Notes: generated from the sequence alone by a model not told the origin. A stretch of DNA of 64,000 nucleotides from an uncultured Actinomycetota bacterium (GCA_963753435.1 CAVWCF010000001.1:1024001-1088000); one strand, 5' to 3'. Positions 22,429 through 54,650 are shown, counted from the first letter of the stretch. Made by a program: numbers and translations.

Positions 22429-22881
22429 TCAGGCGCCCACATTGGTAGTGACCCAGTCCACGATCTCCCGGGTCGGGGTTCCAGGGGTGAACACGTGAGC
22501 CACCCCGGCTTGCAGCAGTTCCGGGATGTCCGCCTGCGGGATGATCCCGCCGCCGAAGACCACGATGTCGGTGGCGTCCTTCTCCGCAAGCAGTCGCACC
22601 ACAGCGGGGAACAGCGTCAGATGCGCGCCGGACAGGATGGACAGTCCGATGGCATCCGCGTCCTCTTGGATCGCGGTTTCGACGATCTGATCCGGCGTCT
22701 GGTGCAGCCCGGTGTAGACGACCTCGATGCCGGCGTCGCGCAGCGCCCGGGCCACGACCTTGGCCCCACGGTCATGACCGTCCAGACCGGGCTTGGCCAC
22801 CACCACGCGCAACGGTGCCGCTTGCGCTTCCGGGCCCTTGCCGGGCGCAGAAGCTGCCGAACCTGATGGGGAGGCGGACAC
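22429..22881 (-). CDS. Cobalamin-binding small subunit of methylmalonyl/isobutyryl-CoA mutase (IcmB-like)
   Basis: [13 protein letters not shown] (DxHxxG), SILSGAH and GGIIP motifs; start GTG 22881 after TACGCT -10. Confidence 0.9.
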
Positions 22882-46866: not shown

Positions 46867-48995
<2,129 letters not shown>

Positions 48996-49002
48996 CTGTG
49001 CC

Positions 49003-49031
49003 GTATCGGCAGCAAGTACGCCGAACGTGAG
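49003..49031 (-). promoter_or_regulatory. WhiG/FliA (sigma28)-like promoter of bldM
   Basis: Minus strand CTCA-N17-GCCGATAC, 7 nt before the GTG start. Confidence 0.5.
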
Positions 49032-49064
49032 AGCTGAATGAGCTTTGGCTGGGACCCGGAAGTA

Positions 49065-50000
49065 TCAGCCCATCAGCGCGGCAACATCGGGTCGCGCCAA
49101 CCAGGCCGACCGCGCGTCCGGTTCCGCGGTATCAGCAGCCAGCGAATCAGCAATGTGATTGACGGCGGCGCGGGCCGAGGCGAGTGCGCGGGCGGACTCC
49201 TGTTCATCCTCAGTCAGGGCCGCCTGCAGCGCGCGCGCCGGCCACACCAGCGCCCGGGCACCGAGGGTTTCGGCCAGCGTCCCAGCCCGGCGAAGCGTCG
49301 CAAGAGCGCGATCGGGGCCCGGCTCGTCCGGGTCCGAAGCGGCCTGCAACTGCGCGACCGCAAGCAGCGTCAACGACCGGGCCACGTGCCGCGGCGCCCC
49401 GGCTTCCTCGGCGGCAGTCAGCGCCGCTGTGGCCGCTGCTGCCGCGGCCTTGGGGTCCTCGGCCAACAGCGCCAGGTCCGCCTTGACCCACTCAAGTTCC
49501 ACCCGCTGTCGCCACCATCCGGAGTTTCGCGCCAGCACCTTGTCGGCTGCGGCAACGCGCTCGCGAGCCGACTCGGGATCGGCCGTGGCGACCGCGTCAG
49601 CGGCCAGGCCGAGCAACGCTTCGAACGCCACCGGATCCAGATCGTGGCCAGCCAGTTCGAGGGCCTGGTTGTCCCGGTTCGCGGCCTCGGTGATGCGACC
49701 CAGTTGGCGTAGGTGGGCCGCCCGGGTGGCCAACGCGAGGCCGGGGATGAGCCGGTCGGAAGGCTCCGGTCCAACCGCAGCGTCCAAGAGGGGCCGCAAG
49801 GCAACTGCGGCTTGGCCGTAGTCGCCGGCTGCCCCGTGGGCGACACCCAGCAGCCAAGCGGCGGCGGCTACCTCAGCGGCGCGGCCCGCCTCCTGCGCCT
49901 GCGCCATTGCCTGCTGCAAAGGCGCGATGGCGGCTTGGGGAGCGCCGTGGAACGCGGCCCGCTCACCCTCGGCCAGCAACCGGGACAACGCGTCCGTCAC
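49065..50000 (-). CDS. Ala-rich helical (TPR-like) hypothetical protein, positional Rv3415c-like
   Basis: AAWLLGVAHGAAGDY, LRQLG and ALLGLAADAVA motifs; located between whiB3 and guaB. Confidence 0.65.
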   Translation of the reverse strand: MTDALSRLLAEGERAAFHGAPQAAIAPLQQAMAQAQEAGRAAEVAAAAWLLGVAHGAAGDYGQAAVALRPLLDAAVGPEPSDRLIPGLALATRAAHLRQLGRITEAANRDNQALELAGHDLDPVAFEALLGLAADAVATADPESARERVAAADKVLARNSGWWRQRVELEWVKADLALLAEDPKAAAAAATAALTAAEEAGAPRHVARSLTLLAVAQLQAASDPDEPGPDRALATLRRAGTLAETLGARALVWPARALQAALTEDEQESARALASARAAVNHIADSLAADTAEPDARSAWLARPDVAALMG

Positions 50001-50092
50001 CGGTTACCTCCTCAATGCCGACGGGGGCGGTGCCCACCGCGAAGACCGCTGCTGTCGCCGCCCTCCAGCGGCGCGGGCAGGCTAGCCGACGC

Positions 50093-51046
50093 TCAGGCGC
50101 CGGCGGATTGCGCCAACGCGGTGACGGCCTCGGTGAGGTCGCCCGCGTGCCGGGCATGCGGTGGCACTTTGGTCCAACCAGGGCCACCCAGAACCAGATC
50201 CGGCGCCGGCCGCATGGCGGGCAACGCCGCCAACTGTGGCAGGCCACCGGTCTGTTCCAGTTGCGACCAGATGAAGACGGCGCAAGGCCCGCTGCGCCGA
50301 ACCGCCGATGCCAACGCCGCCCGGGGAACGCGCGACCCCAGGACGCGACAGGCGACGTGCCGTTCCGCCAGTGCCGCCGCGGTGGCGTAGAGGGGCAGTG
50401 AGTGCAACTCCTCCTCCGCCGATGCCAGCAGGACCGGCCGCGGGTTGTGCGGTTGCGTCAGGCGGGCGATCACTGGTCGCAGCGCCGTCTGCGCCGAATC
50501 CGACAGCAGATGCTCCACCTCAATGCCTTCGCCGGTCTTCTCCCACCGCTCCCCGATGGCAATCATCACCGGGACCACGAGTTCATCCCAAGTGGCGATG
50601 ACTCCGCGACGGCTCAAGGCCTCGGAGATGATGTCCGTGCAGGCGCGGGCATCCAGCGCCATGGCCGCCCGGGTCAGCCCCCTGGTGCTGGCAGTGCCTC
50701 CGGGCAAGGCAACAACCCGACCGCCGCCGGCAGTGGCAGCCGGATGAATCGGCGCGGCGGCCCGCGCCGGCACCGGTAGCGCGTCGACGCCGATCTCCAT
50801 GGCCACCCGGGCCGCCTCCGCCGGCGCCACGCCCTGCTGCGTGAGGCGGCGCATCGTTTCCAACCGGGCGACGTCGGAAGGGCTGTAGCGCCGGTGCGAA
50901 CCCGGCGGGTGCTCCGACGGCCCTAGCCCGTAGCGGCGATCCCAGGTCCGCAGCGTCGCTGGTGCCACCCCCAGTCGCCGCGCCACCGCGGCAACCGTGA
51001 GGGCCGCGCTGAACTCAACGGGCGACTCGGTCACGAAGCGAATCAT
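50093..51046 (-). CDS. MerR-family regulator with B12-binding domain (CarH/LitR-like)
   Basis: VARRLGVAPATLRTWDRRYGL HTH; W-x9-EH (WEKTGEGIEVEH); ExH (EELHSLP); start ATG 51046 or GTG 51034. Confidence 0.85.
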   Translation of the reverse strand: MIRFVTESPVEFSAALTVAAVARRLGVAPATLRTWDRRYGLGPSEHPPGSHRRYSPSDVARLETMRRLTQQGVAPAEAARVAMEIGVDALPVPARAAAPIHPAATAGGGRVVALPGGTASTRGLTRAAMALDARACTDIISEALSRRGVIATWDELVVPVMIAIGERWEKTGEGIEVEHLLSDSAQTALRPVIARLTQPHNPRPVLLASAEEELHSLPLYATAAALAERHVACRVLGSRVPRAALASAVRRSGPCAVFIWSQLEQTGGLPQLAALPAMRPAPDLVLGGPGWTKVPPHARHAGDLTEAVTALAQSAGA

Positions 51047-51104
51047 CCCGCCTCTTGGCGCGTTCGGCATCCGGAGGCACGCTGCCACCCCCGATCCGTA
51101 TGTG

Positions 51105-51159
51105 GTTCATAAATTGTTCATCTTTGCCTCTTGACACGCTCTTGAAACGCTTCTATGTT
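51105..51159 (+). promoter_or_regulatory. whiD promoter (TTGACA-N17-TATGTT) overlapped by 11-bp-period direct repeats
   Basis: GTTCAT at 51105 and 51116; CTCTTGACACG / CTCTTGAAACG at 51128 and 51139. Confidence 0.7.
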
Positions 51160-51187
51160 TCTACCCAACCGCACCAAGGAGGAAGAA

Positions 51188-51484
51188 ATGGCCGACATCA
51201 CCCGACTCCCAGGCCCCAACGCCGATCTGTGGGACTGGCAGCTGGACGCGGCCTGCCGAGACCTCGACAGCTCGGTCTTCTTCCACCCCGAAGGCGAGCG
51301 CGGATCCGCCCGAGCGCGCCGCCAGGAGCAAGCGAAGGCCGTGTGCGCGACCTGCCCGGTGTTGCGGCAGTGCGCCGAGCACGCGCTCCGCGTTCGCGAG
51401 CCCTACGGCGTGTGGGGCGGTATGACCGAGGAAGAGCGAGCCGAGATGTACACAACTGGTCGCACGCTGCGAGCGGTTTCCTGA
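51188..51484 (+). CDS. whiD: WhiB-family Fe-S regulator, WhiD/WhiB3 orthologue
   Basis: RLPGPNADLWDWQ..AAC, FFHPEGERG, CxxC and EPYGVWGG motifs; AAGGAGG RBS. Confidence 0.92.
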   Translation: MADITRLPGPNADLWDWQLDAACRDLDSSVFFHPEGERGSARARRQEQAKAVCATCPVLRQCAEHALRVREPYGVWGGMTEEERAEMYTTGRTLRAVS

Positions 51485-51539
51485 CAGCACCCCCCCGAAG
51501 GGCCCGGCGGAACCCCCCCCTCCCCGCCAGGACCCGACC

Positions 51540-51577
51540 AAGCCGAACGCCCGGGCAATCGCCCGGGCGTTCGGCTT
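51540..51577. terminator. Bidirectional terminator between whiD and groEL1
   Basis: AAGCCGAACGCCCGGGC-AATC-GCCCGGGCGTTCGGCTT, perfect 17-bp stem. Confidence 0.85.
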
Positions 51578-51598
51578 TGCTGTGACTGGGGGTGCGGA

Positions 51599-53269
<1,671 letters not shown>

Positions 53270-53760: not shown

Positions 53761-53787
53761 TTAGCACTCCGTCAACTTGAGTGCCAA
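53761..53787. promoter_or_regulatory. CIRCE element (HrcA operator) 1
   Basis: TTAGCACTC-N9-GAGTGCCAA. Confidence 0.92.
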
Positions 53788-53879
53788 GCGCGGCCCGTAC
53801 GGGAACGGGGCGCTCTCGATCTCGACACCCTGGGTGCGGCTCGCTAGCGTGCGATGAGACACCAACTCGGGAGGAACCG

Positions 53880-54650
53880 ATGCCCCACCGCCCCGGAACC
53901 TTCGGCTGGATCGACCTGTCCACGAACGACGTCGGCGCCGCGAAGGCCTTCTACGCGGGTCTCCTGGGCTGGCAGATGACCGACATGCCGACCGACGTCG
54001 GCGTCGACTACACGATGTGCAGCAAGGACGGAAAACAGGTCGCCGGGCTGGGTCCGCAACCGCCCGGCCTTGCCGAGGCGGGCGTTCCGTCCATGTGGAA
54101 CGCCTATGTGATCGTGAACAGTGCCGACGACGCCGTGGCCGCGGCGGTTCAGGCCGGGGGCACGGTGCCGATGCCGGCGATGGATGTCATGGACCAAGGC
54201 CGAATGGCCATGATCACCGATCCGTCCGGGGCCACGTTCGGGGTTTGGCAGGCGAACCAACATCACGGTGCCGAACTCACTCACGCGCCCGGGTCGCTGA
54301 CCTGGACCGAACTGCAGACTCGGGACCTCGACACCGCGCTCGCCTTCTACGAGACGGTGTTCGGCTGGGTGTGGCGCGACACCGACGGGTACCGGATCGC
54401 GTTGCTGGACGATGCGGCCGACCCCGCCAAAGACGGCATCGCCGGCGCCATGAACATGCCCCCGCAGGTGCCACCGATGGTCCCGGCCAATTGGCAGATC
54501 TACCTCGGTGTCGCAGACGTGGACGATGCCTTGACGCGAAGCCAGGACCTCGGCGCCTCGGTCTTCCTGCCCAAGATGGACCTCGACGGAATGACCTTCG
54601 CCGGCCTCAGCGACCCAACCGGAGCCATGTTCCTCATCGGTGACTTCTAG
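53880..54650 (+). CDS. Two-domain VOC/glyoxalase protein (CFP32-like)
   Basis: PGTFGWIDL, AFYAGLLGW and GRMAMITDPSGA motifs, duplicated domain. Confidence 0.9.
   Translation: MPHRPGTFGWIDLSTNDVGAAKAFYAGLLGWQMTDMPTDVGVDYTMCSKDGKQVAGLGPQPPGLAEAGVPSMWNAYVIVNSADDAVAAAVQAGGTVPMPAMDVMDQGRMAMITDPSGATFGVWQANQHHGAELTHAPGSLTWTELQTRDLDTALAFYETVFGWVWRDTDGYRIALLDDAADPAKDGIAGAMNMPPQVPPMVPANWQIYLGVADVDDALTRSQDLGASVFLPKMDLDGMTFAGLSDPTGAMFLIGDF

Follow-up and report, generated by a model that had tools for sequence, protein, structure and literature searches.

Characterised B12-dependent photoreceptor-repressors mostly control carotenoid genes. According to the accessible text of PMC9304148, photoreceptor CarH is distinguished from CarA by a Wx9EH motif, its lower-ligand motif is D/ExHx2G/P-x41-SxT/V-x22-27-GG, and the operators of characterised CarH proteins contain at least three tandem TnnACA repeats. 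The photoreceptor set of SignatureFinder comprises GxxW, EH, GxxH and GxxxP, and the position of the bis-His pair differs among proven photoreceptors (PMC11796333, accessible part). In Streptomyces coelicolor, light- and B12-dependent control is exerted via LitR, and the sigma-LitS consensus is GCATCCR-N15-CVGAAD (PMC11519972, accessible part). WhiB3/WhiD is known from mycobacteria and Streptomyces, which are lineages found here without the partner gene and the site described below; the EPY triplet is a feature of class III Wbl proteins (PMC6282962, in part), and RegX3 is one of the known whiB3 regulators (PMC7525159, in part). No description of a MerR-B12/whiB3 pair was found in the literature searched, which reached few subscription papers, and no paper combined CarH/LitR and WhiB terms among the part of the matches inspected.

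The locus analysed here lies in a window of 64,000 nucleotides from an uncultured Actinomycetota bacterium. The original prediction had described a CarH-like regulator divergent from whiD/whiB3, with tandem repeats over the whiD -35, in a circuit possibly extending to a TPR-like gene and bldM. As a whole, that interpretation stands for a CarH/LitR-type protein paired with whiB3 and for a -35 site that tracks the partner gene, and is unsupported for the tandem operator and the TPR/bldM extension. Comparison of sequences indicates that the regulator-operator-target unit is real and widely conserved, with a LitR/CarH-like regulator that fails strict CarH operator and signature tests.

The regulator, its locus and its homologues

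The locus comprises groES-groEL (minus strand), whiB3 (plus), the regulator (minus), a TPR-like gene, a response regulator gene in the bldM position, and guaB (Table 1). The whiB3 gene has the WhiB domain, four Cys residues, EPY-GVWGG and groEL-bldM-guaB setting of class III (WhiB3/WhiD) Wbl genes, and is about 70% identical to whiD-position genes in Streptomyces-like genomes. The regulator probably starts at GTG 51034 rather than at 51088, because in the relative L031, 90% identical, the same codon is ATG and follows a matching GATGAT -10; the promoter assigned to it is based on the comparison with L031 and on nAnAAT-like boxes ahead of start codons in relatives. Elsewhere in the window, a double glyoxalase/VOC-family gene (53781-54650, plus) lies between groES and a tsaD-like gene.

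Table 1. Positions within the window of the regulator, the divergent whiB3 gene, the putative operator and neighbouring genes.
Feature	Position	Strand	Description
LitR/CarH-like regulator	50093..51034	-	MerR winged helix (RTWDRRY), four-helix cap (GxxW-x9-EH), Rossmann B12 domain (ExHxxP...SxL...GG); P0001 read from ATG 51046
Inferred regulator promoter	51042..51070	-	-35-like ATGCCG 51070-65; -10 GATGAT 51047-42, 7 nt before GTG; probably leaderless
Outward-facing operator-like pair	51103..51120	-	Units TGAACAA (51120-14) and TGAACCA (51109-03); 11-bp period
Forward operator-like pair	51132..51149	+	Units TGACACG (51132-38) and TGAAACG (51143-49); 11-bp period; fills whiB3 -35 and spacer
whiB3 promoter, sigma-70/SigA-type	51131..51159	+	TTGACA 51131, 17 bp, TATGTT 51154-59
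whiB3/whiD, class III Wbl	51188..51484	+	98 aa, four Cys, EPY-GVWGG, GGAGG ahead
TPR-like gene, 3' of regulator	49065..50000	-	Syntenic neighbour; circuit membership unsupported
bldM-position NarL-type response regulator	48390..48995	-	Syntenic neighbour; circuit membership unsupported

The MerR helix-turn-helix and the W-x9-EH and ExH motifs of the original prediction are present in the regulator, whose Pfam matches to MerR_1 (60.5 bits, cut-off 21.6) and B12-binding_2 (39.4, cut-off 23) both pass, with B12-binding at 28.3, under its cut-off of 32.1. In P0001 numbering (start ATG 51046), the motifs read W168-x9-E178-H179, E213-x-H215-x-x-P218, S261-x-L263 and G287-G288. The closest solved relative is Thermus thermophilus CarH (E 1.7e-18). 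A single-sequence fold was dropped (pLDDT 47) in favour of a model built from a 98-sequence alignment (pLDDT 88.5), for which the best Foldseek matches were T. thermophilus CarH structures 5C8D, 5C8E and 5C8F (E about 1e-15). Pfam, model and Foldseek all agree with the LitR/CarH three-part architecture, in which a MerR winged helix is followed by a four-helix cap and a Rossmann B12 domain, and the modelled protein has the CarH fold.

The upper-ligand motif Wx9EH is present, and is found in 74 of the best 80 of at least 579 confirmed GTDB loci (hereafter the best 80 loci); RxW[DE]RR[YH] occurs in 78 of the same 80, and the W-H bis-His pair in none. The recognition helix reads RTWDRRY where CarH has RxWERRY, an E-to-D exchange that is nearly invariant across the group. 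Three loci (L013, L048 and L066) have a CarH-like RxWERRY helix together with TG[AC]ACAA in both units of the site described below, nearer to TnnACA; they belong to one clade and therefore represent a single event. The regulator matches the lower-ligand motif as given in the accessible text of PMC9304148, with L replacing T/V in SxT/V. A possible defect had been seen in ExHxxP, a doubt that is removed because D/ExHx2G/P is the published form of the motif (PMC9304148, in part) and P also stands in litR-like homologues of Streptomyces type. Three of the four SignatureFinder elements (GxxW, EH and GxxxP, as listed in the accessible part of the source) are found, and GxxH is replaced by EELH; the G of GxxH occurs in just 8 of the 62 pattern-matched proteins among the best 80 loci. 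Against the NCBIfam CarH equivalog model NF052513, the regulator scores 79.2 bits, the cut-off being 400. The regulator is a probable adenosyl-B12 photoreceptor from the LitR lineage of Streptomyces.

Of 7997 candidates scored in a protein search with the regulator, 7312 matched at E of 1e-20 or lower. The nearest homologues without a whiB3 link are 40-50% identical and face a photolyase gene, crtE or a litS-like sigma gene. One group faces an ECF sigma gene and has genes for RskA, photolyase, a DUF2867 SDR and cyclopropane synthase close by, this being the litR-litS arrangement; Streptomyces sp. KN37 is the named case of a regulator facing the sigma gene, and the label "litR-like" is used here for gene arrangement, not for comparison with the S. 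coelicolor LitR sequence. Another group faces crtE-crtI-crtB. In a FastTree phylogeny of 75 proteins, which omits 4 of 79 that are partial or frameshifted (L021, L043, L059 and L032), the non-whiB3 homologues sit among the whiB3-linked ones on a backbone too weak to order events. Two further arrangements were observed. In Actinomadura flavalba, a 52%-identical homologue (L218:1067-3409) lies opposite a gene for DNA photolyase; a promoter-like element of GCAACC type is present there, and a site of whiB3 type is absent; L218 was rejected as a bldM locus, the response regulator being just 30% identical. At L103:1488-3896, a homologue faces a gene for a fusion of HemD and an OmpR-type DNA-binding domain, presumably NnaR-like.

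The site on the whiB3 promoter and its probable owner

The survey covered 161 genomes across the class, in which related genomes, here as in all counts, are not independent samples. Among the 88 with a whiB3-like match, counting from coordinates placed the regulator divergent from whiB3 in 66 (two of them, G032 and G039, unpublished) and left 22 without it; in the best 80 loci, 73 regulators are paired with whiB3. The gene pair proposed originally is thus conserved, with Lentzea, Kibdelosporangium, Actinocrispum, Motilibacter and Ca. Planktophila as named carriers. A metagenome scan for the locus yielded 4 loci only, and four metatranscriptome runs gave word shares of 0.05-0.12 and just short contigs over the locus. 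A frameshift splits whiB3 in G075 (L096:2567-2831), where the site is intact, and the regulator is split in G002 (L012:1293-2220); either may be an assembly error.

Direct reading confirms two pairs of repeats with an 11-bp period in opposite orientation: GTTCA, which is TGAAC on the minus strand, at 51105 and 51116, and CTCTTGACACG at 51128 with CTCTTGAAACG at 51139. As had been claimed, the forward pair covers the TTGACA -35 of whiB3, within the sole sigma-70-like promoter in 50900-51620 (TTGACA-17 bp-TATGTT; mean 0.0 in 50 shuffles). A 23-nt matrix was derived from 57 paired promoters, two of them from the unpublished G008 and G030; its consensus is C TTGAAC AACTTnTGAAGCGGTT, and it ends 1-2 nt before a TAnnnT box. 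For the genome scan (2.17 Mb), a matrix of 53 sites from other species only was used, this species being left out. The minus-strand pair (19.0 bits) ranks first and the plus-strand pair (18.5) second in the genome, the third match scoring 15.6, so that the two pairs stand beyond chance. Comparison across promoters shows the repeats to be a single conserved two-unit site present in two copies, which face outward and lie 12 bp apart, measured between their first T's.

The operator is not of the CarH style first proposed. In place of tandem TnnACA units there are two inverted pairs with a TG-N3-[AC][AG] core, typical units in relatives among the best 80 loci being TGA[AC]CAA followed by TG[AG][AC]GCG. 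In the conserved register, one of the four units (TGAACAA) fits TnnACA, and the TTGACA -35 has to be moved by one base to do so. Of the CarH operator as described in the accessible source text (at least three tandem 11-bp TnnACA repeats over -35/-10), the 11-bp period and the -35 overlap are present.

The site tracks the gene pair closely. Leave-one-out scores exceeded 10 in 54 of the 57 training pairs, as did scores in 11 of 12 pairs of a first held-out set that includes several close kin of training genomes; in a second set drawn from the best 80 loci, the site scored above 10 in 69 of 69 pairs after removal of 4 duplicates. The site was found in none of the 25 whiB3-like promoters without the partner (0/19 and 0/6), where the maximum was 8.2 and the shuffle maximum 9.5; this unpaired set comprises genomes that gene order and size mark as Streptomyces-like or mycobacteria-like, some of the genes being paralogous copies, and includes same-family contrasts in f44 and f19 (G110 and G160 vs G045; G099 vs other f19 genomes), L094 being excluded for having no upstream DNA. 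Conservation of the site exceeds that of a -35, because seven mycobacteria-like promoters that keep TTGAC-17-TAnnnT score -19.7 to -29.0 over the spacer columns alone, against a minimum of 5.6 in paired promoters. In the mycobacteria-like loci L081-L085, a TPR-like gene (35-37% identical) is divergent from whiB3 where the regulator is missing.

Two families separate the regulator from whiB3. In all three f15 genomes, which have no whiB3-like match, the regulator faces a DUF2867 SDR gene and the site is retained (9.0-15.4). In all seven f16 genomes that retain the regulator, it lies between groEL and TPR/bldM, without a divergent gene or whiB3, and no site accompanies it; in these genomes (L095, L097, L099-L102 and L114) the regulator follows groEL and the wing His is replaced by Arg in most. 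The simplest reading is that the site is the predicted operator of the regulator at the promoter of its partner, because it goes with loss of the regulator and stays when the regulator faces the DUF2867 SDR gene. The litR-like, crtE-linked and photolyase-linked homologues have no site at their own divergent promoters (windows at most 0.9, with one off-position score of 10.0 in L105); their specificity therefore differs.

The site might instead be owned by another factor, either an OmpR-family protein (GlnR, PhoP, RegX3 or MtrA) or WhiB3-SigA through autoregulation, with the B12 protein as a syntenic bystander. The window's GACAC-n6-GAAAC resembles the GlnR box, which counts for such a factor. 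GlnR binds an a-site-n6-b-site box at Mycobacterium smegmatis whiB3 (PMC6361795, in part) and PhoP controls whiB3 (PMC6282962, in part); in addition, G024 has a site-like sequence without the regulator, two f16 genomes have a similar repeat ahead of an M23 peptidase gene, and the f16 family, where whiB3 is lost, the regulator kept and the site gone, also fits a model that needs WhiB3. However, a GlnR/PhoP-type box would be expected at whiB3 whatever its neighbour, and the site is missing at all 25 unpaired promoters, the 7 mycobacteria-like ones included; TGAAACG is the second unit in just 10 of 73 pairs among the best 80 loci, and the site stays with the regulator in the three f15 genomes without a whiB3-like match. 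Ownership by another factor is accordingly judged decidedly unlikely. The f16 repeat reads TGAACAA-N4-TGAACA and lies over the sigma-70-like promoter of the M23 peptidase gene (L156:1500-1518 and L157:1500-1518).

With the regulator as the probable owner, the outward copy bears on how it would act. That copy exceeds a score of 8 in 14 of 55 training pairs, lying at 11-13 bp in 13 of the 14, and in 21 of 69 held-out pairs from the best 80 loci, at exactly 12 bp in 18 of the 21. Its distance to the regulator gene, 89-403 bp in the best 80 loci, is not fixed, and it is assigned for this reason to the whiB3 promoter. Four loci (L008, L040, L067 and L071) have a second pair upstream in direct instead of inverted orientation. 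If the regulator were an activator or dual switch, the outward pair just upstream of the -35 could serve as an activator seat of the kind suggested for LitR in its light state at litS; the fixed 12-bp distance and the use of this pair alone at the DUF4397 promoter (see below) would suit such a role, as would the published model of light-converted LitR activating litS (PMC11519972 and PMC12705666, accessible text). Yet the copy found universally occupies both -35 and spacer in a promoter whose spacing is the normal 17 bp in 40 of 55 paired sites, and the outward pair exceeds 8 in just those 21 held-out pairs, which makes an activator or dual switch quite unlikely. MerR-type activators work on promoters with an elongated spacer.

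The suggested extension to the TPR gene and bldM would operate through autoregulated read-through from the regulator promoter. The genes point the same way with gaps of 92 and 69 bp, and a search of 48200-50300 gave no terminator-like site; nevertheless, the nearest downstream marker among the 73 pairs of the best 80 loci is TPR in 32, bldM in 8, guaB in 32 and none in 1, the site-to-regulator distance varies over the 89-403 bp given above, the outward pair here ends 32 bp upstream of the inferred regulator -35, and TPR and bldM remain where the regulator is lost (L087 and L093). Because the neighbours vary, both genes persist without the regulator, the regulator promoter has no fixed site, and the inverted pair keeps a constant distance to the whiB3 -35 and not to the regulator start, the extension is unsupported and a circuit driving these genes is very unlikely. 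A strict repeat pattern applied to 38 genomes gave 18 matches vs 11 in a reversed control and was set aside; no wide regulon is therefore indicated.

A candidate light switch and a possible second target

Light switching whiB3 on is suggested because the conserved four-part site occurs on the whiB3 promoter only where the genes are paired. In the dark, the regulator would likely bind this 2+2 site, with each of the inverted pairs perhaps occupied by one half of a single oligomer; on exposure to green or blue light, it would release the site and SigA would then transcribe whiB3. AdoCbl binding, light-driven release, and repression rather than activation are steps that we infer. We consider it somewhat more probable than its contrary that the regulator is a LitR-lineage AdoCbl photoreceptor that binds the whiB3 promoter in the dark and is released by light, with light-dependent repression as the most likely mechanism.

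Besides a gene for a PduO-type adenosyltransferase, the genome contains three more B12-domain genes, and CobS and CobN were not found in it (98% complete); B12 or AdoCbl therefore presumably comes from uptake. PduO was dropped as a correlate, being present in 153 of 161 genomes and therefore uninformative. Besides the regulator gene, the window has another gene for a B12-binding domain (22465-22809, minus; 100 bits). The input to the regulator might be the supply of B12 or the redox state of cobalamin instead of light, in which case B12 would be a corepressor and whiB3 would be de-repressed on B12 shortage or oxidative damage. Such an input would fit the missing GxxH signature and bis-His histidine (the former as listed in the accessible part of PMC11796333), a host whose B12 synthesis is not demonstrable from CobS/CobN matches, and a target that is a redox and NO sensor (PMC6282962, in part) and not a crt operon. 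It is made rather unlikely by the Wx9EH motif that sets CarH apart from CarA (PMC9304148, in part), which is kept in 74 of the best 80 loci, by the varying bis-His position in proven photoreceptors (PMC11796333, in part), and by close homologues that face photolyase, crt and litS-like genes.

If light is the input, whiB3 may not be its only outlet. A DUF4397-sortase-ECF sigma-RskA operon outside the window (G000:C1:325465-328500; L118:4465-7504) carries a copy of the site at C1:325491 (minus), which at 12.4 bits is only tenth in the genome. This copy adjoins GCATCCA-N15-CGGAAT, an exact match to the sigma-LitS consensus as published in the accessible text of PMC11519972 and one of four exact matches in the genome; a looser pattern, with 77 genome matches vs 50-66 in shuffles, gave way to the published consensus. 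The site scores at least 12 at the DUF4397 promoter in 9 of 18 genomes that have regulator, whiB3 and this gene, the present one included, and the outward-facing pair is the sole pair there. In seven genomes with an adjoining site and a matched promoter, scores for the columns outside the -35 are 14.2-22.4, where the 99.9th percentile is 2.0. The site is absent at the DUF4397 promoter of all five f16 loci, and one of five regulator-negative control loci has a site-like score (G024, 8.9). These comparisons are suggestive of the operon (C1:325550) as a second target of the regulator, in which case the LitR-to-LitS cascade would be reproduced in trans and WhiB3 and the ECF sigma factor would be two outputs of one light switch.

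As the original prediction had stated, no crt or photolyase gene is present at the locus; elsewhere in the genome, crtE, crtI and crtB-type genes are found near C1:39-44 kb, and a photolyase gene near C1:1.65 Mb. Neither the site nor a sigma-LitS promoter was found at this genome's crtE and photolyase genes. At C1:807854-808485 (L172), a fasciclin lipoprotein gene has a near-consensus sigma-LitS-type promoter (GCATCCA-N15-GGGAAA), and is likely a target of the ECF factor from the DUF4397 operon. A further exact sigma-LitS-consensus match at C1:1225519 (minus) lies 120 bp ahead of an 832-aa ORF with an N-terminus that we take to be ClpC-like.

Relation to known systems

If the proposed reading holds, light feeds a SigA-binding Fe-S regulator directly in many actinomycete families, including the small-genome freshwater Ca. 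Planktophila. It would also provide a defined operator for a protein of the LitR lineage, whose biochemistry in S. coelicolor is called unknown (PMC11519972, accessible text), with a geometry unreported for known CarH in the accessible sources. Because the pair occurs in cultured, harmless strains, the claim can be tested directly. More tentatively, LitR-type B12 photoreceptor control of whiB3 may be the ancestral and most widespread actinomycete light circuit, kept even in 1.4-Mb freshwater genomes. One symmetric oligomer, reading an inverted 2+2 operator, would gate both the Fe-S/SigA co-regulator and an ECF sigma factor of LitS-like type; Streptomyces litR-litS would then be a rewired descendant, and Streptomyces whiD and mycobacterial whiB3 would have lost the light input. 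We regard this wider history as possible, though doubtful.

The closest counterpart is the Streptomyces LitR-LitS system. Homologues in the litR-litS arrangement are 40-46% identical to the regulator, share Wx9EH and ExHxL[PA], and fall in the same actinomycete group on the tree (support 0.94 vs two distant outgroups, with a weak backbone); in this genome, a promoter of sigma-LitS consensus (PMC11519972, in part) carries the site. Unlike a Streptomyces LitR orthologue, which is divergent from the litS ECF sigma gene, the regulator here faces whiB3, the ECF-RskA operon lying about 750 kb off at C1:325-328 kb, and its site differs from the repeats in litR-like intergenic regions.

With the CarH proteins of T. 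thermophilus (PDB 5C8D/5C8E/5C8F), Bacillus megaterium and myxobacteria, the regulator shares the three-part architecture, the fold, Wx9EH and D/ExHx2G/P, as well as 11-bp-period repeats that overlap the -35 (PMC9304148, in part). It differs in an identity of about 26%, in RTWDRRY rather than RxWERRY, in the absent bis-His histidine, and in having L and R at the R176 and D201 positions; the operator here consists of 2+2 inverted TG-N3-[AC][AG] units, and the target is a regulator gene rather than crt.

As at the whiB3 genes under GlnR (PMC6361795, in part) and PhoP (PMC6282962, in part), the proposed circuit is a direct transcriptional input into a class III Wbl gene via a two-part box. GlnR, PhoP and RegX3 are, however, phosphorylation-type OmpR-family activators in mycobacteria, whose promoters are without this site, and a light or B12 input is undescribed in the accessible parts of these reports. 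Finally, WhiB is among the transcription factors encoded near actinobacterial B12-domain photosensor genes in photoglobin/B12-domain operons; the proteins concerned are photoglobin-fused, a domain that the regulator lacks, and the accessible text of that report does not describe the MerR-B12/whiB3 pair or the site (PMC8717448).
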